From assembly GCA_027365385.1 (NCBI GenBank), contig DAHXNN010000022.1, positions 1 to 45,927 of the forward strand: a DNA stretch of 45,927 nucleotides. Reading direction: 5' to 3'. The notes below the pieces were generated by a model. The model saw only the letters and a program-made list of their open reading frames with translations. It ran no database searches and was not told the origin of the DNA. This DNA is from Acidimicrobiaceae bacterium. GTDB taxonomy: Bacteria > Actinomycetota > Acidimicrobiia > Acidimicrobiales > Bog-793. Shown here piece after piece: positions 1,862-33,273 of this stretch. A program made the translations under genes and the position numbers. Numbering within the stretch: position 1 is the first letter of the stretch; every line of letters starts with the position of its first letter.

Positions 1862-1901
1862 GCTGGGCGGGCACGCTCGGCCCGACGCTACGCTCGGTGC
1901 C

Positions 1902-4787: not shown

Positions 4788-4792
4788 CCCAC

Positions 4793-5029
4793 ATGGCGCG
4801 GCTCCGGCTGCTCGGACCGGCACGGGACGCCGCGGGCACCGCTCGCGCCGACGTGCCTGGAGCGACGGTCGGCGAGGTCCTCGACCACGCGCGCGCTCGC
4901 TTCGGCGAGCGCTTCGCCGTGGTCCTCGAGCACTCCGCCACGTGGCTGAACGGCGCGCCGGCGGCACGCGACGAGAGCGTCGGCGAGGACGACGAGGTCG
5001 CCGTGCTGCCACCGGTCTCCGGGGGCTGA
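4793..5029 (+). CDS. moaD: molybdopterin synthase sulfur-carrier subunit MoaD
   Basis: 78 aa, ThiS/MoaD-like, ending ...VAVLPPVSGG*. Starts 5 nt after the moaA stop. Embedded in the long artefactual track ORF 3512..5029. Confidence 0.85.
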   Translation: MARLRLLGPARDAAGTARADVPGATVGEVLDHARARFGERFAVVLEHSATWLNGAPAARDESVGEDDEVAVLPPVSGG

Positions 5030-5049
5030 GGGTCCAGCGACAGCGTCGC

Positions 5050-5514
5050 TCAGTGCGGGAGGCCCCCGGCCATGAGCTCGAGCGCGTGCGCGAGGACGTC
5101 CGCCACCGCTTCGAAGGACTCGACCGCTCCCGCGGGTGACCCGGGGACGTTGAGGACGAGACAGGTCCCGAGCGTCCCCGCGACGCCCCGCGACAGCCGG
5201 CCGAGAGGGCTGGCGGCGCGCATCGCCTCCGCGAGCCCCGGCGCGTACCGGTCGAGGACCCGGGACGTCGCCTCGGGCGTGACGTCCGACGGAGCGAAGC
5301 CCGTGCCGCCCGTCGTGACGAGGAGGCCCGCGAACGCCTCCGCGAGCTCGGCGACGGCATCGGCGACCGGCTCCAGGCCGTCCGCGACGACACGCCAGCC
5401 GACGACAGTGAACCCGTGCGCCTCGAGCGCGGCGGCGAGCTCCGGACCGGAGCGGTCGTCCCGCTCGCCCGCGGCCGTCGAGGTCGAGACCGTCAGGATC
5501 TTCGCGTCCGGCAC
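5050..5514 (-). CDS. moaB: molybdenum cofactor biosynthesis protein MoaB/MogA family
   Basis: LLVTTGGTGFAPSDVTPEA and LVLNVPGSPAGA motifs of the MoaB/MogA fold. Confidence 0.9.
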   Translation of the reverse strand: MPDAKILTVSTSTAAGERDDRSGPELAAALEAHGFTVVGWRVVADGLEPVADAVAELAEAFAGLLVTTGGTGFAPSDVTPEATSRVLDRYAPGLAEAMRAASPLGRLSRGVAGTLGTCLVLNVPGSPAGAVESFEAVADVLAHALELMAGGLPH

Positions 5515-9324: not shown

Positions 9325-11493
9325 ATGGAGCGCACGGAAATGGACGACGCAGGACAGGTCGACGCAGGACAGGTCGACGCAGGACAGGTCGACACAGGAC
9401 AGGTCGACGCAGGACAGGTTGGGACGGCCAAGGTTGGGACGGCTCAGGTCGAGACGGCACCGAAGGCCTCCGGTCAGGGCGTCGCCCGGTCGCGCAGCCT
9501 GTTCGACCGCGAGATCCTCGCCCAGGCCCTCGGCGGGTCGGTCAGGAAGCTCGACCCCCGTGTCCAGGTGCGCAACCCGGTCATGTTCGTCGTGCTCGTC
9601 GGGACGATCGTCACCTTCGTCGAGGCGATAGCGCACCCGAGCACGTTCAGCTGGTCCATCACGATCTGGCTGTTCCTCACCGTGGTCTTCGCGAACTTCG
9701 CCGAGGCGATGGCCGAGGGCCGAGGCAAGGCTCAGGCAGACACGCTCCGCCGAATGCGCTCGGAGGCCGAGGCTCGACGACTCCGCGCCGACCGCACCGA
9801 GGAGCGGGTAGCGGCGGCGGAGCTCGCCCGGGGCGACCTCGTCGTCTGCGAGGCGGGCGATCTCGTCCCCTCCGACGGCGAGATCGTCGAAGGGATCGCG
9901 TCGGTCGACGAGTCCGCTATCACCGGCGAGTCGGCACCGGTGATCCGGGAGTCCGGCGGCGACCGCTCCGCAGTGACCGGTGGCACGAAGGTCCTCTCGG
10001 ACCGGATCGTCGTGCGCATCACGGCCGAGCGCGGCAAGACCTTCCTCGACCGGATGATCTCTCTCGTGGAGGGGGCGAACCGCCAGAAGACACCCAACGA
10101 GATCGCCCTCACGATCCTGCTCGCGGCGCTCACGATCGTGTTCCTCCCCGTCGTGGTCACGCTGCAGCCCTTCGGCCACTTCTCCGGTGCATCGGTGTCG
10201 GTCGTCGTCCTCGTCGCCCTCCTCGTCTGCCTGATCCCGACGACCATCGGCGCCCTGCTCTCCGCGATCGGCATCGCCGGAATGGACCGGCTGGTCCAGC
10301 GCAACGTGCTCGCGATGAGCGGGCGTGCAGTAGAGGCGGCGGGCGACGTCCAGACGCTCCTGCTCGACAAGACCGGCACCATCACGCTCGGCAACCGGAT
10401 GGCGGCCGCCTTCCTGCCGACGGCTGGTCACACCGAGGAGGAGCTCGCGGACGCCGCGCAGCTCGCGTCGCTCGCGGACGAGACCCCCGAAGGGCGCTCC
10501 ATCGTCGTGCTTGCGAAGCAGCGCTTCGATCTCCGGGAGCGGGAGCTGGCGCCCGACCACGAGTTCGTCCCGTTCTCGGCGAACACGCGGATGTCGGGCC
10601 TCGACATCGGAGGTCGCTCGGTCCGCAAGGGTGCTGCCGAGTCGGTGCGCCGCTGGGCTGTCGAGCAAGGAGGCACCGTCCCCGAGGGACTCGACGAAGC
10701 GGTCGGCCAGGTCGCTCGCGCCGGGTCGACGCCCCTCGTCGTCGCAGACGGTCCGACGATCCTCGGCGTCATCGAGCTGAAGGACGTGGTGAAGCAAGGT
10801 ATCAAGGAGAAATTCGCGGAGATGCGCCAGATGGGCATCCGGACGGTCATGATCACGGGCGACAACCCCCTCACCGCGGCGGCGATCGCAGAGGAGGCCG
10901 GCGTCGACGACTACCTCGCCGAGGCGACGCCCGAGACGAAGATGGAGCTCATCAAGGCCGAGCAGGAGGGCGGCAAGCTCGTCGCGATGACGGGCGACGG
11001 CACGAACGACGCGCCGGCACTCGCGCAGGCCGACGTCGGCGTCGCGATGAACACGGGGACCACGGCCGCGAAGGAGGCCGGCAACATGGTCGACCTCGAC
11101 TCGAACCCCACGAAGCTCATCGACGTCGTCGAGATCGGCAAGCAGCTCCTCATCACGAGGGGGTCGCTCACGACGTTCTCGATCGCAAACGACGTGGCGA
11201 AGTACTTCGCGATCATCCCGGCACTCTTCGTCGCTACCTACCCCCAGCTCAACACGTTGAACATCATGAAGCTCCACTCGCCACAGAGCGCCGTGCTCTC
11301 GGCGGTGATCTTCAACGCTCTCGTCATCATCGCCCTGATCCCCCTGGCGCTTCGAGGCGTGAAGTTCCGCGCGACCGGCTCGGCAGCGATACTCCGCCGC
11401 AACGTCGCCGTCTACGGCGTCGGCGGGATCGTCACGCCGTTCGTGTTCATCAAGCTCATCGACCTCGTCCTCACGGCGCTGCACGCCTACTGA
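9325..11493 (+). CDS. kdpB: K+-transporting P-type ATPase subunit B, with a repeat-containing N-terminal extension
   Basis: DKTGTIT phosphorylation site, [24 protein letters not shown] 9325 directly follows the kdpA stop. There is no alternative canonical start downstream of the repeats. Confidence 0.97.
9346..9450 (+). repeat. 15-nt in-frame tandem repeat (GACGCAGGACAGGTC x5 with 2 single mismatches, then 2 degenerate units) encoding (DAGQV)n in the KdpB N-terminus
   Basis: Read directly: units at 9346, 9361, 9376, 9391, 9406, and degenerate units at 9421 and 9436. Confidence 0.95.
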
Positions 11494-11506
11494 TGGAGAC
11501 TCTCTG

Positions 11507-12115
11507 ATGCTCACCTACCTCCGCCGATCCGTCGTCATGGCGGCGATCTCGCTCGTCGTCTTCGGCTTCCTCTACGCGCTTGCCGGCACTGGCGTCGCGC
11601 AGCTCCTCTTCCGCCACCAAGCGGACGGCTCGATCACCGCGAACGGCTCGACGCTCATCGGCCAGAGCTGGACGAGCCCGCGGTGGTTCCACGGTCGCCC
11701 CGACGACACCGGTCCCTACGCTGCGAACCCGAAGAAGGGAATCGCGGGTGGCGACAACCCGCTCCTTGCGAACGGCGTGGCCGGCGAATCAGGTGCGACG
11801 AACCTCGGTCCCCGCTCGAAGGTCCTACTCGCCGACACAAAGGCACTCGTCACCTACCGGCACCGGCTCGGCGTCGACCCGACCGAGGACCTCGTCACGA
11901 CCTCGGGAAGTGGCTACGACCCGGACATCACCCCGCTCGACGCGGTCGTGCAGATCCCGATGGTCGCGAAGGCGACAGGCATCTCGCAATCCGCGCTGCG
12001 CCACCTCGTCGCCGCCGAGACCCACGGCGCGGAGCTCGGCTTCCTCGGCAGCAGCTACGTCGACGTCCTCCAGCTCAACGAGGGGCTCGCGCGCCTCGAG
12101 CGGGCTGGGCACTGA
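11507..12115 (+). CDS. kdpC: K+-transporting ATPase subunit C
   Basis: N-terminal TM helix, then FRHQADGS...GSTLIGQSW...F.GRP and ...SGSGYDPDITP motifs typical of KdpC. Confidence 0.95.
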   Translation: MLTYLRRSVVMAAISLVVFGFLYALAGTGVAQLLFRHQADGSITANGSTLIGQSWTSPRWFHGRPDDTGPYAANPKKGIAGGDNPLLANGVAGESGATNLGPRSKVLLADTKALVTYRHRLGVDPTEDLVTTSGSGYDPDITPLDAVVQIPMVAKATGISQSALRHLVAAETHGAELGFLGSSYVDVLQLNEGLARLERAGH

Positions 12116-12128
12116 CACGGCATCGCCC

Positions 12129-12458
12129 GTGCGCCACGAGCCGCCCCCACCCGAGCCGGGGCACCGCCCGCCCTCCGCGTCGCCCGGGCCGGCCCGGGCC
12201 ACGCGGGTCGCCGACGCGATCCCCCGGCGCCCGCTCTCTGTCCACGGCGTCGTCACCGCGGTCACCGTGCGCGAGGCGACGGGACCCGTCCTCGACGCGA
12301 CCCTCGACGACGGCACGGGAGTCGTCGAGCTCACCTTCTTCGGGCGACGGTCGGTGCCCGGGATCGTGCCCGGGGCATCCGTCGCGGCCGAGGGCGTCGC
12401 GCTCCTCGCCCACGGGCACCTCACCCTGCTCAACCCCCGCTACCGGTTCACAACCTGA
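12129..12458 (+). CDS. small OB-fold (nucleic-acid-binding-type) domain protein with a Pro-rich N-terminus
   Basis: SVHGVVTAVTVREATGPVLDATLDDGTGVVELTFFGRRSVPGIVPGASVAAEGV resembles actinobacterial OB-fold proteins. GTG 12129 is the first start after the kdpC stop. The upstream part of track ORF 11580..12458 is out-of-frame overlap. Confidence 0.6.
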   Translation: MRHEPPPPEPGHRPPSASPGPARATRVADAIPRRPLSVHGVVTAVTVREATGPVLDATLDDGTGVVELTFFGRRSVPGIVPGASVAAEGVALLAHGHLTLLNPRYRFTT

Positions 12459-12532
12459 GCAAGGGCGCCTCGGTGCCGGACGGCGGGAGCGCCAGACGCG
12501 ACACGGTCGCCAGCATCGGCGCGCGGCCGCCG

Positions 12533-13213
12533 TCACACGGCCACGAGCTGGTAGCCGATGCCCGGGTGCGTCCGTAGCATCTCGCCGGCGGGCTCGCCGA
12601 GCTTGCGGCGCACGCGGTGGGCATAGACGCGCAGGTAGTGCGACTCCCCGCCGTACTCGGCGCCCCAGACGTCTCGCAGGATCATGTGCTGGGTGCAGAC
12701 CTTGCCGGCCCGGCGCGCCAGGTAGGCCAGGAAGTCGAACTCACGCGACGTGAGCTCGAGGTCGCGCCCGCCGACACGGCCCGCGTGGCCAACGAGATCG
12801 AGCTCGAGATCGCCCACGACGATCTCGGTGGGCTCGGCCCCGGCGACGACCCGGGAGTGGCGGAGCGCGACCCGAAGGCGAGCCTCGAGCTCGGCCATGC
12901 CGAACGGCTTCGTCACGTAGTCGTCGGCACCGCCGTCGAGGGCTGCGACCTTACGCTGCTCGTCGCCCGACGCGGAGAGCACGACGATCGGCACCGACGA
13001 CCATTCGCGCACCCGGCGGCACACCTGCGTACCGTCGAGGTCCGGCAGACCCAGGTCGAGAAGGACGACGTCGGGAGAGACGAGCGCCACCTGGCTGATG
13101 CCGTCCTCGGCGGTGCGGGCGACGACCACGTCGTACCCCCGCGCCGACAGCCCGATGCGCAGCGCCTTGCACAGCGACAGGTCGTCGTCGACCACGAGCA
13201 CCCGCGCCGTCAC
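12533..13213 (-). CDS. kdpE: OmpR-family response regulator KdpE
   Basis: Receiver domain (VLVVDDD ... LLDLGLPDLDG ... KP) plus winged-helix output (LTSREFDFLAYLARRAGKV...LRVYAHRVRRKL). GTG 13213 overlaps the kinase stop (GTGA). Confidence 0.92.
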   Translation of the reverse strand: MTARVLVVDDDLSLCKALRIGLSARGYDVVVARTAEDGISQVALVSPDVVLLDLGLPDLDGTQVCRRVREWSSVPIVVLSASGDEQRKVAALDGGADDYVTKPFGMAELEARLRVALRHSRVVAGAEPTEIVVGDLELDLVGHAGRVGGRDLELTSREFDFLAYLARRAGKVCTQHMILRDVWGAEYGGESHYLRVYAHRVRRKLGEPAGEMLRTHPGIGYQLVAV

Positions 13214-14736
13214 GGCACCTCCGCGTGGCGACGGGCGCGCGGAAGCGTGAACGCGAACCGAGCACCACCGCCGCGACGCTCGGCCGCGGTGATCGTCCCG
13301 CCGTGAGCCTCGACGAAGGCCTTTGCGATCGTCAGACCGAGCCCTGCCCGCCCTCCACCCGCTCCGTTGCGGCTGAACATTGCGAAGACGCGCTCGCGAT
13401 CGCCCTCGGCGACGCCTGGGCCGCGGTCCTCGACGGCGACCTCGACCGCGCCGCCAGCGGCGCGGGCGGAGAGCTCGACCGCTGTCCCGTCCGGCGCATA
13501 GCGGCCCGCGTTCTCGATGAGGTTGACGAGCACCTGGACGGCGAGAAGGTGGTCGACCCAGACGGCGGGCAAGGTGAGGGGGAAGGAGGTCGAGACGCGA
13601 CCCGGCCATCCCGGGCCGAGCACGACGAGCGCCTCGGAAAGCAGCTCCTCTACGGTCGTCTCCCCGAGGTCGAGCCGGAGCGCTCCGGCCTCGATCTGCG
13701 CCATGCCGAGGAGGTTCGCGACGAGCCTCTCGAGCCGGTCCGCCTGCGCCTCGACCAGACCGAGCAGCTCCTGCTCGTCCTCGCGGCACAAGGAGACGTC
13801 GTCGCTGCGCAGATCCGACACGGCCGCCTTCACCGTGGCGAGCGGCGTGCGCAGGTCGTGCGAGACCGCACCGAGCATCGCCCGACGCCACCGATCCGCC
13901 TGCTCGAGGCGCTCGCTGCGCTCGGCCCGGCTGCGGAGCTGCTCCCGTTCGATCGCGAGCGCCGCGTGGTTCGCGAAGGTGCGCAGAAGCTCGAGCCCGT
14001 GCGCGCCCGGCACCACGCCGGCGACGGCCAGGATCCCGACGGGGCGACCCGCGACGCCGAGAGCCAGAGCGACCGTGCCGTCGGCGCCGGACGGTGGGAC
14101 GGCTCGGCTACGGACCTCACCGCCCGAGGGAGACACGGCGCTGAGCTCGTCGCCACGAAGCGGCGCTCCGGCCCACGCCGCGACGTCGAGACCAGCTGCC
14201 GAGGGCGGCTCGCGACCGGCCAGCCCGCTCCTGTCGTCGGAGGAGGCCGGGAGGAGCAGGGCAACCGAGCGGAGATCGAAGACCTCGTGGACCGTCGTGA
14301 CGACGAGGTCGAGCAGCTCGGCGAGTGGCGTCTCACCGATGAGCACGTCGGAGAGCTCGAGCAAGGTACGCGCGTCGTCCTCCCGGTGGCGCGCCTCCGC
14401 GCGCGCGGCTGCGAGGCGCGCCACGATACGGGCGACGACGAGCAGGACGGCGACGTAGACCCCGAGCGCCACCCAGTTCTCGCCGGCACCGACCGACAAG
14501 GTCCCGTAGGGAGGGATGAAGAGCAGGTCGTAGACGAGGAAGCCGACCGAGACAGCGAGCACCCCTGCCGCGAAGCCCCCCGTCGCGACAGCGAGCACGA
14601 CGGGCACCACGAGGACGAGAGCAGCCGTCGCGACACCGACGTGCGAGCGGAGCGGCATCATGACGGCGCTCACCACTGCGTCCCCGGCGACCGCCGTAAG
14701 CGCCCCGAGAACAAAACGTCTCGATTGTCCACTCAC
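13210..14736 (-). CDS. kdpD: KdpD C-terminal half: 4-TM (DUF4118-type) + GAF + HisKA + HATPase sensor kinase
   Basis: Four N-terminal TM helices, H-box AMLGAVSHDLRTPLA, N-box NLIENAGRYAP, DRGPGV, GLGLTIAKAFVEAHGG. A strong SD (GGAGAGGAG) lies 7 nt upstream of GTG 14736. It lacks the KdpD-N/Usp domains. Confidence 0.9.
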   Translation of the reverse strand: MSGQSRRFVLGALTAVAGDAVVSAVMMPLRSHVGVATAALVLVVPVVLAVATGGFAAGVLAVSVGFLVYDLLFIPPYGTLSVGAGENWVALGVYVAVLLVVARIVARLAAARAEARHREDDARTLLELSDVLIGETPLAELLDLVVTTVHEVFDLRSVALLLPASSDDRSGLAGREPPSAAGLDVAAWAGAPLRGDELSAVSPSGGEVRSRAVPPSGADGTVALALGVAGRPVGILAVAGVVPGAHGLELLRTFANHAALAIEREQLRSRAERSERLEQADRWRRAMLGAVSHDLRTPLATVKAAVSDLRSDDVSLCREDEQELLGLVEAQADRLERLVANLLGMAQIEAGALRLDLGETTVEELLSEALVVLGPGWPGRVSTSFPLTLPAVWVDHLLAVQVLVNLIENAGRYAPDGTAVELSARAAGGAVEVAVEDRGPGVAEGDRERVFAMFSRNGAGGGRAGLGLTIAKAFVEAHGGTITAAERRGGGARFAFTLPRARRHAEVP

Positions 14737-14783
14737 GGCGCGCTCCTCTCCCCCAGGCTAGCGGTGCGGGAGGTCCGGGGGGC

Positions 14784-14853
14784 GCTCGACGCTCGACGCT
14801 CGACGCTCGACGCTCGACGCTCGACGCTCGACGCTCGACGCTCGACGCTCGAC
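14784..14853. repeat. perfect heptanucleotide tandem array (GCTCGAC)x10 in the divergent intergenic region between the two KdpD halves
   Basis: Counted unit by unit from 14784 to 14853: ten identical copies with no interruption. Confidence 0.97.
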
Positions 14854-14865
14854 AACAATGGCGGC

Positions 14866-16035
14866 ATGCACGATGCGATGTACGCGCCGGACGACGAGCA
14901 GGTCAACCCGACCGGGAGGTTCCGCATCTACCTCGGCGCGGTCGCAGGTGTCGGCAAGACGTGCGCGATGCTCGACGAGGGGTGGCGCCGGCACGAGCGG
15001 GGCGGAGACGTGGTCGTCGGGTTCGTGGAGACCCACGGCCGGGCGCACACCGTCGAGCAGCTGCGCGACCTCGAGGTGGTACCGAGAAAGCACGCCGGGC
15101 ACAGGGGCGCTGACTTCGAGGAGATGGACCTCGATGCCATCCTCGAGCGCCGACCGGAGATCGTCCTCGTCGACGAGCTCGCCCACACGAACGTGCCGGG
15201 CTCTGGACGCCACGAGAAGCGCTGGGAGGACGTCGTCGAGATCCTGGACGCCGGCATCGCGGTGGTGAGCACTGTCAACGTCCAGCACCTCGAGAGCATC
15301 GCCGACGCGGTCGAGCAGATCACCGGCGTCGCGGTCCGTGAACGCGTCCCGGACTGGGTCGTCCGCCGGGCAGACCAGCTCGAGCTCATCGACTCGTCGC
15401 CCCAACAGCTGCGCCGGCGCATGATGCACGGCAACGTCTACCCACCGGACAAGGTGGAGGGCGCGCTCGCCGGCTTCTTCCGCACCGAGAACCTCGTGGC
15501 GCTACGCGAGCTCGCGCTCCGCTTCGTGGCCGACGAGACCGAGGAGGAGCTGCTCGCCTACCTCGAGAGCCATCACCAGACGGCCGTCTGGGACACGAGC
15601 GAGCGCATCCTGGTCGCGGTCACCGGGGCACCGGGGACACCGGGCGTCGTCCGGCGCGCAGCGCGGATCGCTGCTCGCGTGAAAGCAGAGCTCCACGTCG
15701 TCCACGTCGTCACGGACGCCACGAGCTCCGGGGCGAGGCACACGATCGACGAGGTCCACCAGCTCGCGGACGACGTCGGAGCGACATGGCACGACGTCTC
15801 CGGGGACGACCCCGCTCGCACACTCGTGAGCTTCGCCTCAGAGCACCAGATCACCCAGATCGTGCTCGGCTCGAGCCGCCGGGGGCGCTTCGAGGAGCTG
15901 ACGCGCGGATCCGTCGTGAGCCGCGTGCTCCGCTTCGCCGCCGAGGAGGGCGTCGACGTGCACGTCATCGCCCGCCGGGATCACTCTGAGCAGCGGGATC
16001 ACTCTGAGTCGGCCGGGGCCGCCGAGATCACCTGA
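14866..16035 (+). CDS. KdpD N-terminal half as a stand-alone protein: KdpD-N (Walker-A-like) domain + Usp domain
   Basis: RIYLGAVAGVGKTCAML, VDELAHTN, VSTVNVQHLES, SPQQLRRRMMHGNVY (KdpD-N), then the Usp-like ILVAVTGAPG...ELHVVHV...IVLGSSRRGRF. It ends with its own stop. AACAAT (14854-59) lies 6 nt before ATG 14866. Confidence 0.88.
   Translation: MHDAMYAPDDEQVNPTGRFRIYLGAVAGVGKTCAMLDEGWRRHERGGDVVVGFVETHGRAHTVEQLRDLEVVPRKHAGHRGADFEEMDLDAILERRPEIVLVDELAHTNVPGSGRHEKRWEDVVEILDAGIAVVSTVNVQHLESIADAVEQITGVAVRERVPDWVVRRADQLELIDSSPQQLRRRMMHGNVYPPDKVEGALAGFFRTENLVALRELALRFVADETEEELLAYLESHHQTAVWDTSERILVAVTGAPGTPGVVRRAARIAARVKAELHVVHVVTDATSSGARHTIDEVHQLADDVGATWHDVSGDDPARTLVSFASEHQITQIVLGSSRRGRFEELTRGSVVSRVLRFAAEEGVDVHVIARRDHSEQRDHSESAGAAEIT
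15976..16011 (+). repeat. 18-nt in-frame tandem duplication (CGGGATCACTCTGAG+3 nt, x2) encoding RDHSEQ/RDHSES at the C-terminus of the KdpD-N protein
   Basis: Read directly: 15976-15993 and 15994-16011 differ only in the last 3 nt. Confidence 0.9.
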
Positions 16036-23626: not shown

Positions 23627-24480
23627 GCGGCGAGGCGGACGAGCCGAAGGTCGGGCCCGGGCTCCCGGACGCTCCCGCAGCGCACGGCTTCTCCGGTGTC
23701 GTCGCCGACGCGCTCGACGCGCTCGCGCTGGATCCAGCCACGAGCTGCGTCCTCAGCGACTTCGACGGCACGCTCGCACCGATCGTCGACGATCCCCGTG
23801 CCGCAGCTGCGCTACCCGGCGCGATCGACTCGCTCCACCGCCTCGCGAGCAGGCTCGGAAGGGTCGCAGTGGTGTCGGGTCGACCGGTCGACTTCCTCGT
23901 CGGAGCGCTCGGCATCGGCGAAGGCCGCTCGCCTCTCGACGCCTACGGCCTCTACGGTGCAGAGCACGTCGCCGCCGATGGGTCGGTGACCCGTCACCAG
24001 CCGAGCGCCCGCTGGCACGCGATCCTCGAGCTCGTCGCGGGCAAGCTGCGCGCCGAGCTGCCGTCGGGCGTCGAGGTCGAGGCCAAGCAGGTGTCGACCG
24101 TCCTTCATTGGCGGGGCGCTCCGGGCGCAGAGCCACTCGCCGTGCACGCGGCTCTCGAGGCAGCGGCCCGCCACGGCCTCGAGCTCCGCCTGGGGAAGAT
24201 GTCCGCCGAGCTGCTGGCACCTGGAACGGCGGACAAGGGCGACGTGGTTCACGAGCTCGCGGACGGGGCCCGTGCCACCTGCTTCCTCGGGGACGACATC
24301 GGCGACGTCCCGGCGTTCGTCGCGCTCGCCGAGCTCGCACAGTCTGGCCGACGGCGCACGTGGCGGCTCGCCATCGGCGGCCCGGAGGTGCCGCGCGCAC
24401 TGGTCTCCCGCGCGGACGCGACGCTCGACGGGCCGGCTGCTGCCTGCGCGTTCCTCGCCGCGCTGGCGGACCGGGTCTGA
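23623..24480 (+). CDS. otsB: trehalose-phosphatase OtsB (start unresolved; the first canonical start is GTG 23869, but the catalytic motif lies upstream)
   Basis: Same frame, open from 23569, encodes ...CVLSDFDGTLAPIVDDP...VAVVSGRP... (HAD motifs I and II), then K..GDD.GD downstream. There is no ATG/GTG/TTG in frame between 23569 and 23868. In-frame CTG codons occur at 23623 and 23728. Confidence 0.75.
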   Translation: MSGEADEPKVGPGLPDAPAAHGFSGVVADALDALALDPATSCVLSDFDGTLAPIVDDPRAAAALPGAIDSLHRLASRLGRVAVVSGRPVDFLVGALGIGEGRSPLDAYGLYGAEHVAADGSVTRHQPSARWHAILELVAGKLRAELPSGVEVEAKQVSTVLHWRGAPGAEPLAVHAALEAAARHGLELRLGKMSAELLAPGTADKGDVVHELADGARATCFLGDDIGDVPAFVALAELAQSGRRRTWRLAIGGPEVPRALVSRADATLDGPAAACAFLAALADRV

Positions 24481-24510
24481 CCGGGGCGCCGTCGCGGGCA
24501 CTGCCCGGCG

Positions 24511-25914
24511 TCAGGGCCCGACGCCGGCGCCGCGACACGGCCGCCGGGCAGCCCTGGCCACCTCGGCGAACCAGGAAGCCGGAGGGCGACCGGCAGCGAC
24601 CACAGCGAGCTCGCCAGACCGTCGGGCACGCTCCGCCGGGTCCATGCCGAGCGCGTGCCCGAGCTGGGCAGCCGTGCCGCTCACGTCGAACGGCTCGACC
24701 GCGAGCGCGGCGCTGCCGAGCTCGTCGAAAGCACCCGCCTCCCGCGACAGAGCCAGCACCCCGTGTCGGTCGTTGACGATCGGCCCCTCCTTCGCGACGA
24801 GGTTCATCCCGTCGCGGAGAGGGTTGACGAGGAGCACGTCGTAGGAGCAGAGCGCGGCGACCGATGCCTCGAAGTCGTCCGCCACCTCGAGCTCCACCGG
24901 CACGTGTCCGCCGGAGCCGAAGCGCTCGTTCAGGCGCGCCACCAGCTCCTCGACCTCGGTCCTGTAGGCGACGTACTCGGACAGGTCCTCCCGAGACGCG
25001 TAGGTGCGCGCGATGAAGACCACCCGGCTCCGCAGCTCCGGCCGCTCCTCGAGCAGCTCGCCGAAGGCGAGGAAGCCCCGGAGCAGGTTCTTCGAGAGCT
25101 CCATCCGGTCGCTGCGCAAGACGAGCGCCCGGCCGGCGAGGCGCTCGAGGAGCTCGGCTCGCTTGCGCACGGTCCCCGGCGAGCCCACGACGCCGGTGAG
25201 CTCCGCTGCGTCGGGGCCGAGCGGGGCGACGAAGACCTCCGGCGCCTCGCAAGCGACGGCCTCGACGCAGCGGCGGAAGCTCTCCGCCCAGCGCCGGGTG
25301 TGGAACCCGCACGCCCCGAAGGCGGCGAGGCTCCCGACGAGCTCGGTGGCCACGGCACTCGGGAGGATGCGCAGCTCCTCGGGCGTGCAGAACGGGGTGT
25401 GGTGGAAGTGAACCGTCGAGAGGTCGGGACGCAGCGCGGCAAGGCGGCTGCCGAGCAGCGCAAGGTGGTAGTCGTTGACGACGACGGTCGCACCCTCGTC
25501 GGCCGATGATGCGACCTCCTCGGCGATCAGCCGGTTGAACTCGCGGTAGCCGTCCCAGGCCTCGTGCCAGCTCCGGTCGCACCGCGGCTGGCGAACCTGG
25601 TCGAACAGGCCGTGGTACAAGAACCACAAGGTCCCGTTCGCGACGACTCGGTACGCGAGATCGCGTACCTCCGGAGCGACGTCGACGAGCCGGAGCCCGG
25701 TCCCGCCGGCGAGGGACGCGGGCACCCCGTCGACGGCGGCTCGGCGGTCACCGTCGCTCATCGCGGTGGCGATCCAGAGCGCTCCCGTACCCGAGAGCGC
25801 GCTCACGAGGCTCGGTGCGAGCCCACCTGCCGCATGGCGCGCGACGAGCGAGCCGTCCGCGTCGACCGAGAACGTCGCGGGACCGCGGTTGGAGACGACG
25901 ACGAGATCGCTCAC
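24511..25914 (-). CDS. otsA: alpha,alpha-trehalose-phosphate synthase OtsA (GT20)
   Basis: VVVSNRGP, VNDYHL, RSDRMELSKN, LVNPLRDGMNLVAKE. The GTG start overlaps the gpgS stop (GTGA). Confidence 0.93.
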   Translation of the reverse strand: MSDLVVVSNRGPATFSVDADGSLVARHAAGGLAPSLVSALSGTGALWIATAMSDGDRRAAVDGVPASLAGGTGLRLVDVAPEVRDLAYRVVANGTLWFLYHGLFDQVRQPRCDRSWHEAWDGYREFNRLIAEEVASSADEGATVVVNDYHLALLGSRLAALRPDLSTVHFHHTPFCTPEELRILPSAVATELVGSLAAFGACGFHTRRWAESFRRCVEAVACEAPEVFVAPLGPDAAELTGVVGSPGTVRKRAELLERLAGRALVLRSDRMELSKNLLRGFLAFGELLEERPELRSRVVFIARTYASREDLSEYVAYRTEVEELVARLNERFGSGGHVPVELEVADDFEASVAALCSYDVLLVNPLRDGMNLVAKEGPIVNDRHGVLALSREAGAFDELGSAALAVEPFDVSGTAAQLGHALGMDPAERARRSGELAVVAAGRPPASWFAEVARAARRPCRGAGVGP

Positions 25915-26753
25915 CCCGCCGGAGTCCGCGCACGCGCGAGTGCCGCGGCGATCACCTCACGCGCCTGGGGGGCGAGCTGGGCGAGCGTGCGGTTGCGGTG
26001 AGCACGAGCGCCGAGGTCCACCTGCGCGATCGCGGCAGGGCCGAAGCGCTCCGCGACGTCGAGCAGCAGCGCCATCTCGACGCCGTAGCCGGGTGCCAGC
26101 TCGATCTCGTCGAGCGCCGTGCGGCGGACAGCGGTCTCTCCGGCGAGCGGTTGCGCGACGTCTGCGAGCTCGGGGAACAACAGCGCGAGGAGCGGGCGAG
26201 CGACGAGCTCGGTCACGCGGCCTCCTCCACTCGGGCTGCCGTGCAGCGGACGCGTGTAGCTGCCCTTCACGAGGACGGTCCCAGCGCACTCGAGGAGCGG
26301 GCCCACCAGGCCCGAGACGAAGTGCGGCCGCATGTTCGTGACGTCCGCGTCGAGGAACACGACGATGTCACCCGTCGTCGCAGCCAAGCCGGCGCGCATC
26401 GCTCCTCCCTTGCCTGTCCCGACCGGCTCGCCACCGCTGCCTCGTGGCACGCTCGCGACGACGCGTGCACCAGCACGCGCGGCGAGCGCCGCCGTGGCGT
26501 CGAGCGAGCCGTCGTCCACGACCACGAGCTCGTCGACGAGCCCGGCGCGACCCATCAGGCCGTCGCGCACGGTCGCCACGACCCTCGCCACCGTCGCAGC
26601 CTCGTCCCGGGCGGGGATGCAGACCGACACCGTGCGGGATCCCTTGAGACCGGCTGCACGAGCGACCGGGAACTCTCGGTGGTCGAACGTCCCGATCGAC
26701 CCGACGGACGTGCCCACGGCGACCATCTTCGCCGCTGCGGCCGACCCCGGCAA
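25911..26753 (-). CDS. gpgS: glucosyl-3-phosphoglycerate synthase (GT81)
   Basis: SVCIPARDEAATV, DELVVVDDGS.D, GKGGAM, DIVVFLDAD, GGGRVTELVARPLLA, APGYGVE and GARAHRNR match the mycobacterial GpgS motifs as I recall them. Start is TTG 26753 or ATG 26726. Confidence 0.82.
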   Translation of the reverse strand: MPGSAAAAKMVAVGTSVGSIGTFDHREFPVARAAGLKGSRTVSVCIPARDEAATVARVVATVRDGLMGRAGLVDELVVVDDGSLDATAALAARAGARVVASVPRGSGGEPVGTGKGGAMRAGLAATTGDIVVFLDADVTNMRPHFVSGLVGPLLECAGTVLVKGSYTRPLHGSPSGGGRVTELVARPLLALLFPELADVAQPLAGETAVRRTALDEIELAPGYGVEMALLLDVAERFGPAAIAQVDLGARAHRNRTLAQLAPQAREVIAAALARARTPAG

Positions 26754-26774
26754 TGACGCAGGCCGCGGGCGACG

Positions 26775-26803
26775 TTGACGAATGGCACGGGTTCGTCCAC
26801 ACT
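26775..26803 (+). promoter_or_regulatory. candidate promoter for the riboswitch-thrC-like operon (TTGACG-N17-CACACT)
   Basis: TTGACG 26775-80, then a 17-nt spacer, then CACACT 26798-803. This places the TSS just before the riboswitch. Confidence 0.35.
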
Positions 26804-26804
26804 G

Positions 26805-26935
26805 TTGCCACCATCAAGAGCGGTCGAGGGACGGGCCCGTAGACGCCGCGGCAACCAGTGCAGGACGCGTGGAGCCGAGATGCGGCACGTGCGTGGTGCT
26901 CCAGGTGCCAATGCCCGAGCGATGAGAAGGAGACT
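26805..26935 (+). promoter_or_regulatory. SAM-I (S-box) class riboswitch, apparently with a short or absent P4 (SAM-I/IV-like)
   Basis: Conserved core elements occur in canonical order: AUCAAGAG (26813-20), CGGUCGAGGGAC, GGGCCCGUAGAC, GGCAACC (26850-56), GGUGCCAAUGCC (26904-15), GAUGAG (26921-26). These are followed at once by SD AAGGAG (26927-32) and GTG 26940. Confidence 0.8.
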
Positions 26936-26939
26936 CGCC

Positions 26940-28181
26940 GTGAGCTTCGTCGAAGGTCTGCGTTGCCGTGAGTGTGGCCGCGTCTATCCCGCCGCCGCAT
27001 CCCATGTGTGCGACTTCTGCTTCGGTCCCCTCGAGGTCGCCTACGACTACGAGGCAGTCGCGGCGAGCATCTCCCGGGAGAAGATCGCGGCGGGGCCGGC
27101 GACGATCTGGCGCTACGCGGACCTGCTCCCAGCGTCGGCCGAGTCCCCCGTCGAGCTCGGTGCGGGCTTCACGCCCCTCGTGCGGGCCGATCGCCTCGCT
27201 GCCGAGCTCGGCCTCGGTGAGCTCTACGTGAAGAACGACACCCGCAACCCGACAGGGTCGTTCAAGGACCGCGTCGTGTCCGTGGCCCTCACCAAGGCGC
27301 GCGAGCTCGGCTTCAAGATCGCCGCCTGCGCCTCCACCGGCAACCTCGCGAACTCCGTGGCGGCCCACGCGGCGCGCGCTGGCATGCAGTCCTACGTCTT
27401 CGTGCCGAAGGACCTCGAGCGCGTGAAGATCCAGACGACCGCTGTGTTCGGAGGCAACCTCATCGCCGTCGACGGCAACTACGACGACGTCAACCGCCTT
27501 TGCGCCGAGCTCGCCAGCGAGCACACGGACTGGGCGTTCGTCAACGTCAACGTCCGCCCCTACTACTCGGAGGGCTCGAAGACCCTCGCTTTCGAGGTCG
27601 CCGAACAGCTCGGATGGACAGTGCCGGACCACGTCGTGGTGCCGATCGCCTCCGGCAGCCAGCTCACCAAGATCCACAAAGGCTTCCACGAGCTCGGGCT
27701 CGTGGGCCTCGCAGACGGCGGCGACGGCGTGCGGATCTCCGGCGCGCAGACGGCTGGCTGCTCGCCGGTCGCGACGGCCTTCGCAGAAGGCTCCGACGTC
27801 GTGCGGCCCGTGCGCCCGGACACGATCGCGAAGTCGCTCGCGATCGGCAATCCTGCCGACGGCTACTACGCGCTCGGCGTGGTCCGCTCGAGCGGGGGCG
27901 CCATCGCCTCGGTGACCGACGACGAGATCGTCGAAGGCATGAGGCTGCTCGCCCGCACCGAAGGGATCTTCGCCGAGACCGCCGGCGGGGTGACGATCGC
28001 GACGCTCGCGAAGCTCGCCGCCGCCGGGATCGTCCGGCGCGACGAGCGCGTGGTCGCCTACGTCACCGGCACCGGGCTGAAGACCGTCGAGGCGCTCGGC
28101 GACACCGTCGGGCCGTCAGCTGTCATCGAGCCGACGCTCGAGGCATTCGCAGCGATCCAACAGGAAGGACTCATGAGATGA
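26940..28181 (+). CDS. threonine-synthase-family PLP enzyme with an N-terminal CxxC...CxxC zinc ribbon (candidate sulfur-carrier-dependent homocysteine synthase)
   Basis: LRCRECG...VCDFC ribbon, PLP-lysine motif NPTGSFKDR, ASTGN, fold-type-II body. GTG 26940 has the best SD; ATG 26880 and ATG 26922 are alternatives. Confidence 0.88.
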   Translation: MSFVEGLRCRECGRVYPAAASHVCDFCFGPLEVAYDYEAVAASISREKIAAGPATIWRYADLLPASAESPVELGAGFTPLVRADRLAAELGLGELYVKNDTRNPTGSFKDRVVSVALTKARELGFKIAACASTGNLANSVAAHAARAGMQSYVFVPKDLERVKIQTTAVFGGNLIAVDGNYDDVNRLCAELASEHTDWAFVNVNVRPYYSEGSKTLAFEVAEQLGWTVPDHVVVPIASGSQLTKIHKGFHELGLVGLADGGDGVRISGAQTAGCSPVATAFAEGSDVVRPVRPDTIAKSLAIGNPADGYYALGVVRSSGGAIASVTDDEIVEGMRLLARTEGIFAETAGGVTIATLAKLAAAGIVRRDERVVAYVTGTGLKTVEALGDTVGPSAVIEPTLEAFAAIQQEGLMR

Positions 28182-28453
28182 GCGTCTCCGTACGCATCCC
28201 GACCCAGCTTCGCCAGCTCACAGGCGGCTCCGGCGAGGTCGCCGTCGAGGCGGCCACGGTACGCGAGGCACTCGCCTCGCTCGACTCGCTCCATCCCGGC
28301 ATCGGCGAGAGGCTCCTCGACGACAACGGCGCCCTGCGCCGTTTCGTCAACTTGTTCCTGGCCGACGAGGACGTCCGCTTCCTCGAGGGGCTCGACACAC
28401 CCGTCAGCGACGGCCAGACCCTGTCCGTCGTGCCGGCGGTCGCCGGAGGCTGA
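28178..28453 (+). CDS. MoaD/ThiS/CysO-family ubiquitin-like sulfur carrier protein
   Basis: 91 aa ending ...LSVVPAVAGG*. The ATG overlaps the upstream stop (ATGA 28178-81). Confidence 0.85.
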   Translation: MSVSVRIPTQLRQLTGGSGEVAVEAATVREALASLDSLHPGIGERLLDDNGALRRFVNLFLADEDVRFLEGLDTPVSDGQTLSVVPAVAGG

Positions 28454-29621
28454 CGACCGCGAGCCCGACCGCGGCGGTGCCGAGCGCCGCTCCGAGAGCG
28501 GACACCCCCGCCCAGCCCGCACGCGCGTAGAGGAGCCCCGACAGCGCTGACGCGGCGGTGCCGCCGACGAAGTAGGAGACCATGTAGACCGCGTTGAGGC
28601 GCGCACCCGCGTCCGAGCGCAGCCGGTATATCTCGCTCTGGTTCGTGATCTGCATCCCCTGGGCGCCGACATCGAGGACGACGATCCCGACGACGAGCGC
28701 GGCGAGCGAGTGCGCTCCGACGTAGATCGGCAGGAACGACGACGCCAGGCACACAGCCGCGAACACGGTGAGCCGTGGCGCGTGCCCACGGTCCGCGAGC
28801 CGTCCCGCAAGGCTCGCCATGAGCGCTCCTGCGGCTCCCACCAGGCCAAACAACCCGATGCGGTCGACACCGTAGTGATAAGGCGCACCCGCGAGGAGGA
28901 ACGCCACGCACGTCCACAGCGTGCTGAAGCAGCCCATGCCGAGCGCGCCGAGCAGGGCGCGGCGCCGGAGCACGGGCTCGGTGCGCAACAGCTCGACGAG
29001 TGACGCGAGGAGCCGGGGGTAGGCAAGGCCGGAAGACGGGCGGAAGACGGGGAGCCGCGCACGGAGTGCGAGCGCCGTGCTCGCCATCGCCCCAGCGGCG
29101 AGGTAGAGGAGCACCCGCCAGCTTGACGCCCCGGCGACGAAGCCCGCGAAGGTCCGCGCGAGCAGAATCCCGAGAAGCAGCCCGCTCATCACCGATCCGA
29201 CGACGCGGCCGCGCTCGCGAGCCGGCGCGAGCGCGGCCGCGAACGGGACGAGCATCTGCGCGACGACCGCCGAGGCGCCGACAAGGAGGAGCCCAACGAG
29301 CAGCAGCACGAAGTCGGGTGCCGACGCGGCAGCGACGAGCGCTCCCGCGCACACCAGGGCCGTCGTGACCACGAGCTTCCTTCGCTCGACGAGGTCGGCC
29401 AAAGGCAGGAGCAGCGCTAGCCCGAGGACATAGCCGAGCTGCGTCGCCGTCGTCGCGAGCGCCGCCACGGCCGCCGGAACGTGGAAGTCGTGGCGCAGGA
29501 GGGGAAGCAGGGGTTGGAGGTAGTAGAGGTTCGCCACCGAGACGCCGACCGCCACAGCGAAGAGCGCGACAAGGCGCCCGCCGACCGCGGAGCCACCGGC
29601 TCCCACGTCGCGCTGGCCCAC
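28404..29621 (-). CDS. MFS transporter (12-TM type)
   Basis: Polytopic hydrophobic protein with the MFS motif LADLVERRK after TM2. GTG 29621 is chosen because upstream codons run into the groEL promoter and gene. The 3' end overlaps the convergent carrier gene by 50 nt. Confidence 0.8.
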   Translation of the reverse strand: MGQRDVGAGGSAVGGRLVALFAVAVGVSVANLYYLQPLLPLLRHDFHVPAAVAALATTATQLGYVLGLALLLPLADLVERRKLVVTTALVCAGALVAAASAPDFVLLLVGLLLVGASAVVAQMLVPFAAALAPARERGRVVGSVMSGLLLGILLARTFAGFVAGASSWRVLLYLAAGAMASTALALRARLPVFRPSSGLAYPRLLASLVELLRTEPVLRRRALLGALGMGCFSTLWTCVAFLLAGAPYHYGVDRIGLFGLVGAAGALMASLAGRLADRGHAPRLTVFAAVCLASSFLPIYVGAHSLAALVVGIVVLDVGAQGMQITNQSEIYRLRSDAGARLNAVYMVSYFVGGTAASALSGLLYARAGWAGVSALGAALGTAAVGLAVVSLRRPPARRTGSGRR

Positions 29622-29691
29622 CGCGCCGGAGGTTAGCGGCCCGGGTGCCGAGCAGGCGATCTTGCACGCCGGGCCGCGGCGTGGTTTGCTA

Positions 29692-29718
29692 TTGGCACTC
29701 GACACAGGAGAGTGCCAA
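29692..29718 (+). promoter_or_regulatory. CIRCE operator (HrcA binding site)
   Basis: TTGGCACTC-N9-GAGTGCCAA is a perfect 9-bp inverted repeat, 42 nt upstream of the groEL ATG (consensus TTAGCACTC-N9-GAGTGCTAA). Confidence 0.92.
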
Positions 29719-29744
29719 AGGCTCGGCGTCGCCGAGCGACCTAG

Positions 29745-31385
<1,641 letters not shown>

Positions 31386-32335: not shown

Positions 32336-33273
32336 GCGCCGCAGGAGCGCCGCCAGCCGGCGCAGAGGCCGTGATCTGGGCCCGCGAGACGGACTCGCAA
32401 GGACGGCTCGGTCGCCTCGTGGACGTGCTCGAGCTCCTGGGTCCGGTCGTCGTGGCCTTCTCCGGTGGAGCTGACTCGACGCTCCTCGCCGTCGTGGCCA
32501 CGCGCGTCCTCGGCCGGGACCTCGTGCACTGCGTCACGGCCGACTCGGCCTCGCTCGCCCCCGAGGAGCTCGCCGACTGCGAAGCGCTCGCAACCGAGTG
32601 GGACCTTCGCTGGAGCGCTCTCGGCACGTCCGAGCTCGAGGACCCGTCCTACGTGGCGAACGGGCTCGACCGTTGCTATCACTGCAAGAACGAGCTCATG
32701 ACGACTCTCGCGCCGGTCGCCGTGGACGAGGGAGGGACCGTCGTGCTCGGGGTGAACCTCGACGACCTCGGCGACCACCGTCCGGGCCAGAGAGCTGCAG
32801 CCGAGCGCGGGGCGGCGTTCCCTCTCGTGGACGCGGGGCTGACGAAGTCGGACGTTCGCGCGTTGTCACGCATCCTCGGCCTACGGACCTGGGACAAGCC
32901 GGCGGCCGCCTGCCTCGCATCGCGCGTGCCGCACGGCACCGCAGTCTCGGCCGAGCTGCTCGGGCAGGTCGCCCGAGCGGAGTCTGCGCTGCGCAGGCTC
33001 GGGTTCCAGAGCCTGCGGGTCCGCCACTACGGCGACACCGCCCGCCTCGAGGTGGAGCTCGCCGACCTCTCCCACGTCGTGGAGCTTCGTGAGCGGGTCG
33101 TCGGTGCCGTGCACGGTGCCGGCTACCGCTACGTCACGGTCGATCTCGAGGGGCTCCGCTCCGGCAACGTCTCGCGTGCCGCTCTCGACGACGAGCGGGC
33201 TCGTGGCGCGTCACCGGGTGCCTCCCCGACGGGCGTGAGCGCGTCGGTCTCCATCCTCGGCACGCGGAGATGA
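32332..33273 (+). CDS. larE: LarE-like PP-loop ATP-dependent sulfur transferase (TIGR00268-type)
   Basis: PP-loop VVAFSGGADS, three conserved Cys (DRCYHCK and AACLASR), C-terminal ARLE...TVDLEG. GTG 32332 overlaps the chdC stop (GTGA). Confidence 0.75.
   Translation: MSAAGAPPAGAEAVIWARETDSQGRLGRLVDVLELLGPVVVAFSGGADSTLLAVVATRVLGRDLVHCVTADSASLAPEELADCEALATEWDLRWSALGTSELEDPSYVANGLDRCYHCKNELMTTLAPVAVDEGGTVVLGVNLDDLGDHRPGQRAAAERGAAFPLVDAGLTKSDVRALSRILGLRTWDKPAAACLASRVPHGTAVSAELLGQVARAESALRRLGFQSLRVRHYGDTARLEVELADLSHVVELRERVVGAVHGAGYRYVTVDLEGLRSGNVSRAALDDERARGASPGASPTGVSASVSILGTRR

Follow-up and report, generated by a model that had tools for sequence, protein, structure and literature searches.

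A SAM-I riboswitch without P4 upstream of a predicted MetM/MetO-type gene pair for homocysteine synthesis in an Acidimicrobiaceae bacterium

We describe here a pair of overlapping genes with a riboswitch in their leader, located in a 45.9-kb stretch of DNA from an Acidimicrobiaceae bacterium (contig DAHXNN010000022.1, positions 1 to 45,927, 71% G+C; called the window in what follows). The first gene encodes a pyridoxal phosphate (PLP) enzyme homologous to threonine synthase (ThrC), the second a small carrier protein of the ThiS/MoaD/CysO family, and the riboswitch belongs to the S-adenosylmethionine (SAM) class SAM-I, also known as S-box. We read the operon as a MetM/MetO-type pair of the methionine pathway under SAM-I riboswitch control, with the function assigned by orthology, and put the probability of this reading at about 0.85. 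The main features of the locus are as follows.

26775..26803, plus strand: promoter-like region, with -35 box TTGACG (26775-26780), a 17-nt spacer and a -10-like CACACT (26798-26803)
26808..26928, plus strand: SAM-I (S-box) aptamer in a compact form without P4, identified by its RF00162 match and by pair counts in relatives
26927..26932, plus strand: Shine-Dalgarno (SD) sequence AAGGAG for the enzyme, 3 nt downstream of the final pair of P1, with 7 nt to the GTG at 26940
26940..28181, plus strand: MetM-like gene, GTG start, TGA stop, 413 amino acids (aa), a fold-type-II PLP enzyme homologous to threonine synthase
28163..28169, plus strand: SD-like GGAAGGA, assigned to the carrier gene, within the 3' end of the enzyme gene and 8 nt ahead of ATG 28178
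28178..28453, plus strand: MetO-like gene, ATG start, TGA stop, 91 aa, ThiS/MoaD/CysO family, ending in ...PAVAGG* without a C-terminal extension

The enzyme product is predicted identically by the gene call of the public collection (P0001, P0002). Its named homologues point to a metagenome-assembled genome of Acidimicrobiales as the origin of the window. A preliminary description of the sequence had noted that the ThrC-like gene and a 91-aa carrier ending in AGG overlap by ATGA; the overlap lies at 28178-28181, and the carrier ends with ...AVAGG* at 28453.

The SAM-I riboswitch in the leader

When the whole window was scanned with the Rfam covariance models (cmscan), a single match exceeded the threshold, RF00162 SAM at 47.9 bits against a gathering score of 44.4 (E = 4.9e-08; E = 3.2e-10 for the 301-nt region alone), and it outscored the clan relatives of this family. 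The alignment spans the model from end to end (1-108), with the whole P4 hairpin deleted and 42 nt inserted inside the P3 apex. All core motifs that the preliminary description had read in canonical SAM-I order were found in their places, together with the helices of the class.

26813-26820, plus strand: AUCAAGAG core motif
26826-26831, plus strand: GAGGGA core motif
26833-26838, plus strand: GGGCCC core motif
26850-26856, plus strand: GGCAACC core motif
26904-26915, plus strand: GGUGCCAAUGCC core motif
26921-26926, plus strand: GAUGAG, closing P1
26812-26815 with 26921-26924: P1, CAUC/GAUG, 4 bp
26820-26824 with 26845-26849: P2a
26828-26830 with 26836-26838: P2b
26850-26856 with 26904-26909: P3, plus a 42-nt apical extension
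26832-26835 (CGGG) with 26914-26917 (CCCG): pseudoknot PK-1, between the P2 loop and J3/4

Folded alone, P3 forms an extended hairpin (-25.2 kcal/mol).

For comparison we used 80 species-level genome loci, 80 metagenomic loci (71-87% protein identity) and one Nonomuraea chromosome; the best 80 genome loci together with that of Nonomuraea (L001) make up the 81 genome loci referred to below. SAM core motifs stand upstream of the enzyme gene in all 66 metagenomic relatives whose available 5' flank reaches 200 nt or more. All 20 of the compact-form loci that were tested score above the Rfam gathering threshold (54.6-72.2 bits), and Rfam also confirms the riboswitch, at 54-82.5 bits, in 12/12 metagenomic loci with a longer form of the leader, in two compact loci from genomes (L009 and L018) and in 4/4 Streptomyces loci. 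Base pairs were counted in a 59-sequence alignment of the compact form, using P1, P2a, P2b, P3 and the pseudoknot between P2 loop and J3/4, with the partners slid by 1-3 columns as control. The proposed helices are paired in 97.5% of cells, versus 31-52% in the slid controls. Two P2a pairs show compensatory double changes between GC and AU, in 17 and 6 sequences, and PK-1 is paired in 100% of the relatives, with two independent compensatory double changes. These counts confirm, far beyond chance, that the riboswitch is real.

The hairpin P4, which completes the four-way junction of SAM-I, was not found in the window leader. The preliminary description had estimated about 8 nt between GGUGCCAAUGCC and the 3' strand of P1; the measured distance is about 5 nt, as CGAGC alone separates J3/4 from that strand, and P4 is absent in the same manner from 52 metagenomic and 6 genome relatives. 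P1 has 5 bp (UCAUC/GAUGA) in most relatives and is reduced to 4 bp in the window by a C·A mismatch, which the window (26808-26815 with 26921-26928) has in common with its closest relative (L082, 1368-1512).

The absence of P4 had been taken earlier as a sign of a SAM-I/IV variant. The absence itself stands, but the leader keeps the division of P2 into P2a and P2b as well as PK-1, and SAM-I scores best. SAM-I/IV aptamers have an undivided P2, lack PK-1 and carry a P4 helix outside the junction (PMC6890682), so that RF01725 was rejected for a leader in which P2a, P2b and PK-1 are present and covary, and in which no helix follows P1. SAM-IV resembles the window leader in its lack of P4 and its short P1, which has 4 bp in SAM-IV (PMC6890682) and 4-5 bp in the window and its relatives. 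It is defined, however, by a P5 hairpin and a second pseudoknot, PK-2, for which there is no room here, the SD following P1 after 3 nt and the GTG after 15 nt; nor does the P3 apex, whose length varies from about 8 to 45 nt among the relatives, hold a conserved partner of the kind that PK-2 of SAM-IV would need. SAM-IV (RF00634) was rejected as well. With typical members of RF00162 the leader shares the same core nucleotides, the P1-P2a-P2b-P3 arrangement and PK-1, and it differs from them in lacking P4. It is thus a P4-less SAM-I aptamer, not SAM-I/IV or SAM-IV.

Such aptamers are an already known variant within the family. The SAM-I alignment of Rfam varies chiefly by the deletion of P4, a group of Actinomycetota has a very short P4 or none, and aptamers of this kind can remain functional, at lower affinity (PMC12714719). 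An older comparative genomics study of actinobacterial RNA elements reported no RNA element for methionine genes (PMC1262725).

Enzyme, carrier and the product of the pair

The enzyme matches PALP in Pfam (1.7e-76) and passes the cut-offs of two NCBIfam threonine synthase models (NF006050, 307 bits versus 303; TIGR00260, 296 versus 167), which is the source of the misannotation; its named homologues in the databases are all called threonine synthase. The carrier matches ThiS in Pfam (3.2e-14, 53.7 bits) and, below the cut-off, the MoaD subfamily TIGR01687, and moeA, moaA, a mog/moaB-like MoCF_biosynth gene and a mobA-like gene lie 21-26 kb away, with no moaD seen among them. All this would fit a genuine threonine synthase beside the MoaD of molybdopterin synthase, with a riboswitch match that is fortuitous or irrelevant. 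We consider this interpretation scarcely tenable, in view of the covarying SAM riboswitch upstream of every close relative and of the following comparisons with canonical ThrCs and solved carriers.

Canonical ThrCs (PDB 6CGQ, 2ZSJ, 1UIM, 2D1F) share the fold, the PLP-lysine motif SFKDR and the presumed substrate with the window enzyme, which differs from them by an N-terminal zinc-ribbon-like segment of about 50 aa and by seven divergent motifs. The motifs emerged from a comparison of 82 clade members with five canonical ThrCs (Bacillus, Aquifex, Thermus, M. tuberculosis and a second Nonomuraea gene); they are conserved, lie in the active-site region and separate the clade from ThrC.

Motif 1: clade SFKDRV, canonical SFKDRG
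Motif 2: clade STGNLA, canonical STGNTS (STGNT(S/A))
Motif 3: clade VNVNxRPYYxEGSKT, canonical VN-SVNPxRxEGQKT (SVNPxR(L/I)(E/Q)GQKT)
Motif 4: clade PIASGSQLTK, canonical PVGNAGNIxA
Motif 5: clade TIAKSLAIGNPADG, canonical TIATAIRIGNPASW (IATAI(R/K)IG)
Motif 6: clade FAETAGG, canonical FxEPASA ((E/L)P(A/G)S)
Motif 7: clade GLKT, canonical GLKD

The window enzyme has the clade form at 7/7 (SFKDRV, STGNLA, VNVRPYYSEGSKT, PIASGSQ, IAKSLAIG, ETAGG, GLKT), and the canonical set was not found in it. With VNVNVRPYYSEGSKT in place of VN-SVNPxRxEGQKT, Arg160 of Thermus ThrC becomes Tyr and Asn157 becomes Arg, while motif 4 changes the GNAGN loop. We take the Arg160/Asn157 motif and the GNAGN loop of the Thermus enzyme to be in contact with both phosphates, that of the substrate and that of PLP. 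Water addition by ThrC is directed by the phosphate that is retained, and a remodelled phosphate site would be expected for an altered reaction outcome.

Identities and phylogeny agree with the motifs. With Streptomyces proteins in the same genetic context the window enzyme has 56-57% identity, versus 37-38% with canonical ThrC, whereas the ThrCs of M. tuberculosis and Bacillus are 59% identical to each other, and in a neighbour-joining tree the clade with the window enzyme and the Streptomyces members separates from ThrC. Nonomuraea carries the riboswitch-linked operon and, elsewhere on the chromosome, a separate canonical ThrC with 64% identity to that of M. tuberculosis; the riboswitch-linked gene is therefore a paralogue and not the housekeeping enzyme. 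Clade motifs, identities and this paralogue support the earlier contention that annotation as thrC plus moaD would be functionally wrong, and bioRxiv 10.1101/2024.10.14.618325 likewise calls MetM frequently misannotated as threonine synthase.

The zinc-ribbon-like segment (CxxC...CxxC with C9, C12, C24 and C27; the PLP lysine follows in SFK109DR) was considered as a hallmark of MetM and rejected. Solved ThrCs align to the window enzyme only from residue 53-56 onward, but the NCBIfam models of other long-form threonine synthases align from residue 7-8. The motif is conserved in 73/80 related loci and degraded or lost in the other seven, among them those of Microcystis (L030) and Amycolatopsis (L061) as well as L029, L032 and L080, so that the segment is not universally required.

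The solved chains closest to the carrier, both over the full length, are 4n6e_B (ThiS/MoaD family protein, 7e-21) and 3dwg_C of M. tuberculosis (4e-20). The latter was deposited as '9.5 kDa culture filtrate antigen cfp10A', and we take it to be CysO; the best solved relatives are thus of CysO type, not MoaD. The carrier is 56-59% identical to Streptomyces carriers in the same context, 70% to a carrier from Acidimicrobiaceae, 47-50% to CysO-type carriers and 47% to the carrier chain of 3DWG. Its end on GG means that C-terminal trimming of the Mec type should not be needed. Carrier C-termini vary among the relatives (L076:7266-7544, L078:5571-5849, L050, L063 and others): many end on GG, others on GGR, GGAA, GGAER or longer tails. 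GGC is found in two of the four Streptomyces carriers, which differ in this from the window carrier, and in Phytoactinopolyspora and Aeromicrobium. This variation would imply that the need for a trimming peptidase is lineage-specific.

The preliminary description had pointed to a MetM/MetO pair from Streptomyces, and the literature bears this out. According to bioRxiv 10.1101/2024.10.14.618325, which cites Hasebe et al. 2024 (Appl Environ Microbiol 90:e01247-24), homocysteine is synthesised in S. albulus by MetM, a homologue of ThrC that uses O-phosphohomoserine and the thiocarboxylate of MetO, in a route that also needs MoeZ and Mec; PMC12172450 places a SAM riboswitch upstream of S. albulus metM. 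The window operon resembles this system, as far as these sources describe it, in its gene order (ThrC-like PLP enzyme, then ThiS/CysO-like carrier), in the upstream SAM riboswitch and in the absence of adjacent genes for MoeZ and Mec. It differs in coming from another class, Acidimicrobiia, in its shorter aptamer without P4 and in the ATGA overlap, and the likeness is known through other Streptomyces species. In four of these and in Nonomuraea, RF00162 (69-83 bits; 76-82.5 bits in the Streptomyces loci L076-L079) is followed by a ThrC-like gene and then by a carrier of 91-92 aa ending in ...AVAGG(C), and the Streptomyces enzymes share clade and signature motifs with the window enzyme. At the Microcystis locus L030 of the same set, the enzyme is about 55% and the carrier 44-46% identical to its Streptomyces counterparts, near the published values of 51.6% and 47.25% for the Microcystis 'ThrC' and its neighbour against MetM and MetO (PMC12172450). 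The matching arrangement and the agreement of the Microcystis identities therefore make the Streptomyces loci very probably metM/metO orthologues.

Placed against ThrC, as had been proposed, the window enzyme clusters with these context-matched Streptomyces proteins. Arrangement, clade membership, paralogy and literature together support the prediction of a carrier-dependent, SAM-regulated homocysteine synthase. A MetM-type enzyme would take O-phospho-L-homoserine and add the thiocarboxylate sulfur of the carrier to it, instead of water as in the threonine route. The ubiquitin-fold carrier of MetO type would deliver this sulfur as C-terminal thiocarboxylate, after adenylation and sulfuration by an E1-like enzyme of the MoeZ type encoded elsewhere, and the product of the pair would be homocysteine.

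Two variants of this scheme have to be weighed. The pair might make another sulfur compound, such as cysteine from O-phosphoserine (as a ThrC-fold analogue of CysM/CysO) or a thio-metabolite, with SAM control as part of a general methionine and cysteine regulon. In some bacteria, genes related to cysteine are under S-box control too, the carrier resembles those of CysO type to the extent given above, substrate specificity is not readable from sequence, and the enzyme matches cysteate synthase weakly (TIGR03844, 79 bits). We hold this to be improbable, as the cysteate synthase score is far under its cut-off of 325 and as Streptomyces proteins in identical context, with the same motifs and in one clade with the window enzyme, represent the arrangement that is reported to make homocysteine from O-phosphohomoserine in S. 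albulus (bioRxiv 10.1101/2024.10.14.618325 and PMC12172450). CysM/CysO/Mec+ of M. tuberculosis (PDB 3DWG) likewise combines a fold-type-II PLP enzyme with sulfur from a protein thiocarboxylate. The window enzyme belongs to the ThrC subfamily and not to CysK/CysM (TIGR01136 matches residues 76-196 only, 49 bits versus a cut-off of 344), no mec adjoins it, and the expected substrate and product are O-phosphohomoserine and homocysteine, not cysteine.

Alternatively, the enzyme could be bifunctional, or the only ThrC-family enzyme of the genome, and make both threonine and homocysteine. The Microcystis homologue had weak threonine synthase and threonine deaminase activities in vitro and did not raise methionine (PMC12172450), and the data cover a 45.9-kb window of the genome. 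Control by SAM alone would starve such a cell of threonine when methionine is plentiful, however, Nonomuraea has a separate canonical ThrC, and the window enzyme carries a Tyr where the phosphate-site Arg of ThrC aligns. We regard this possibility as very improbable.

Homocysteine synthesis by the MetM/MetO route is thus the preferred reading of the pair, and several points weigh against it. The orthology with S. albulus MetM goes through other Streptomyces species in the described arrangement, the role of the pair in the window organism is assigned by orthology, and sequence alone cannot separate O-phosphohomoserine from O-phosphoserine as the substrate. The side activities of the Microcystis homologue suggest that family members may differ in their job (PMC12172450). 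As regards a canonical thrC, moeZ, mec and other homocysteine routes, the analysis covers a 45.9-kb window of the genome. In the leader, P1 has only 4 bp and the Rfam score of 47.9 is the lowest among all relatives tested (54-82.5), so that the window aptamer may bind SAM less tightly. Its minimum free energy is no better than that of shuffled sequences (z = +1.2), and in nearest-neighbour folding the SD is not clearly more or less accessible with the aptamer enforced than in the free state; such calculations are uninformative either way for an RNA that is pseudoknotted and ligand-bound.

As the preliminary description had stated, the window holds no E1-like activator and no JAMM peptidase: Pfam searches on about 50 open reading frames (ORFs) and motif scans found no ThiF/MoeZ-type E1, JAMM/Mec or rhodanese in it, and when the flanks of the 81 genome loci were compared all against all, no sulfur-activation genes recurred beside the pair. 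The moeZ gene of M. tuberculosis is also unlinked to the carrier genes. The sulfur donor chain, called unknown before, therefore reads better as encoded elsewhere, while the absence of its genes from the window holds. Wolinella succinogenes is said to use HcyS/HcyD/HcyF/MetY to make homocysteine with sulfur from the thiocarboxylate of a ThiS-like protein, as proposed for the window. Its PLP enzyme is reportedly an O-acetylhomoserine sulfhydrylase of fold type I, with the genes for the activating enzyme and the protease in the same cluster, whereas the window has a ThrC-like enzyme and neither of these genes clustered with it.

Control of the operon by SAM

From the promoter-like region upstream of the aptamer, transcription would probably begin where the 5' strand of P1 lies, at about 26808-26812, which fits the short P1. 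The TTGAC box of this region is kept at a fixed distance 5' of P1 in an alignment of six genome relatives; a sigma-70 consensus scan found no promoter match between the upstream gene and the start codon.

At its other end, P1 adjoins the SD AAGGAG and GTG 26940 just as had been claimed, and this fusion is kept in relatives. In the 52 compact relatives, GGAGG directly follows the P1 3' strand GAUGA, and the start codon stands 31-43 nt past GGUGCCAA. The leaders of Streptomyces and Nonomuraea keep P4, yet their P1 likewise runs straight into GAGGAG and the start codon. A terminator scan found no terminator-like site between aptamer and start, its two hits lying inside coding sequence. A P1 that is directly followed by the SD, without a terminator, points to translational repression, and a translational OFF switch operated by SAM is the best-supported reading of the leader. 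When SAM is plentiful, it would lock P1 and the pseudoknotted core, and the folded aptamer would sit against SD and start codon, thereby reducing translation initiation of metM and, via the ATGA overlap, of metO. With little SAM in the cell, P1 would open and both proteins would be made.

A conserved extension of P1 into the SD was rejected as a general mechanism, since the seventh pair (columns 10/135) is paired in just 30/56 sequences. This, and the lack of clear SAM-dependent SD occlusion in the folding calculations, would agree with a riboswitch that acts on transcription, for instance by Rho-dependent termination or RNA decay, and not directly on translation initiation. We think that such a mechanism is unlikely, given that no intrinsic terminator separates aptamer and start, that 3 nt between P1 and SD and 15 nt between P1 and GTG leave no space for a separate expression platform, and that the fusion of P1 and SD is kept in compact relatives and Streptomyces alike.

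Going beyond the translational OFF switch itself, one could regard the compact leader as a distinct minimal subclass of translational SAM-I riboswitches on metM-metO, acting by steric occlusion without an anti-SD helix, next to a carrier that is independent of Mec and in a route that is possibly the sole source of homocysteine. Such a subclass could be marked by a transcription start at P1, a P1 of 4-5 bp, the absence of P4, P5 and PK-2 and an SD fused to the P1 3' strand, and could extend over Acidimicrobiia and a few metagenome-assembled genomes of Acidobacteria and Actinomycetes. As a whole, the proposal is speculative and doubtful.

Some metagenomic relatives with 72-74% protein identity have a longer leader (L131:1380-1480, L135:705-800, L145, L129, L141), which keeps P4 and has about 80 nt more between P1 and SD, with two conserved GC-rich hairpins. 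A long-range helix is predicted in it between GCCGAUG in the P1 3' strand and CAUCGGC just before the start codon. In these relatives the operon appears to have an expression platform of another kind, more elaborate than that of the compact form.

Distribution, surroundings and significance

In a full HMMER scan of 1.84 billion cluster representatives, 2206 clusters were found at E <= 1e-30, canonical ThrCs included. The best 80 genome loci span Actinomycetota, Chloroflexota, Cyanobacteria, Acidobacteriota, Verrucomicrobiota, Planctomycetota and Aquificaceae. Among the 81 genome loci, 58 have an ORF for a GG-type carrier just downstream of the enzyme gene and 54 have the SAM core upstream, the latter mostly in Actinomycetota; Cyanobacteria and most Chloroflexi are without it. 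Judged from these sequences, the MetM/MetO arrangement is common beyond Streptomyces, in Actinomycetes, Acidimicrobiia, Solirubrobacterales, Chloroflexi, Cyanobacteria, Acidobacteria, Verrucomicrobiota and Planctomycetota. The 11.85-Mb chromosome of Nonomuraea gerenzanensis (NZ_LT559118.1; L001, L163) is almost unannotated and is filed in PLSDB as 'plasmid I', which is why a chromosomal locus surfaced in a plasmid search.

In relatives from Chloroflexi/Dehalococcoidia, the genes for MetM-like enzyme and carrier are separated by an ORF (about 80 aa) that encodes a NIL domain (PF09383; 1e-14 in L007, 3.5e-12 in L047). The intervals that bear it are:

L007:7263-7611
L016:2566-2942
L020:3505-3840
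L025:4830-5166
L027:7227-7590
L047:7230-7529

The NIL domain is associated with methionine metabolism, and in these riboswitch-free Chloroflexi lineages the protein might be a protein-level methionine sensor or a partner of the pair.

In the window, the operon is preceded by a gene for a GT2 glycosyltransferase (25911-26753, minus strand) and followed, after the carrier gene, by one for an MFS transporter, also on the minus strand; enzyme and carrier therefore form a self-contained two-gene operon. A trehalose-phosphatase-like gene, a GT20 (OtsA-like) gene, a GT2 (GpgS-like) gene, metM-metO and groEL recur around actinobacterial loci. All five elements are present in the window (23869-31385) and in an 82%-identical relative (L162, 4121-13823), and in Nonomuraea (L001, 5816-9902) metM-metO is followed by groEL. 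The recurrence of otsB/otsA-like genes, GT2 and groEL is a matter of synteny, not function, and a link to methionine is not evident.

Four kb downstream of the pair, past groEL and a chlorite-dismutase/HemQ-like gene, an ORF on the plus strand (32380-33273) encodes a PP-loop ATPase-like protein with an SGGADS motif. It resembles PP-loop proteins of the ATP-dependent sulfur-transferase type, has a single, weak Pfam match to NAD_synthase, and is not syntenic in L162. The molybdenum cofactor cluster occupies 599-5514, with a MobA-like gene at about 1265-1861, MoeA at 2239-3720, MoaA at 3717-4787 and the MoCF_biosynth (MoaB/Mog-like) gene at 5050-5514 on the minus strand, and is preceded by a regulator with HTH and PBP_like domains (126-1208); neither moaD nor moaE was seen in the window. 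A complete kdp system follows at 7633-16035, with kdpA, kdpB and kdpC on the plus strand and then, on the minus strand, genes for a kdpD-like sensor kinase and a response regulator.

The pathway was described experimentally in 2024, its riboswitch and the P4-less form of SAM-I are known as well, and the window adds a member from Acidimicrobiales but no new principle. Standard annotation as threonine synthase plus MoaD/ThiS has consequences nevertheless, as a homocysteine route would be overlooked, and threonine synthesis perhaps counted twice, when the metabolism of Acidimicrobiales and many other phyla is reconstructed. The seven motifs, taken together with a GG-ended neighbour and a SAM riboswitch, provide a practical rule for re-annotation, and the operon offers a clean, minimal, natural SAM-I element for the study of a putative translational switch.

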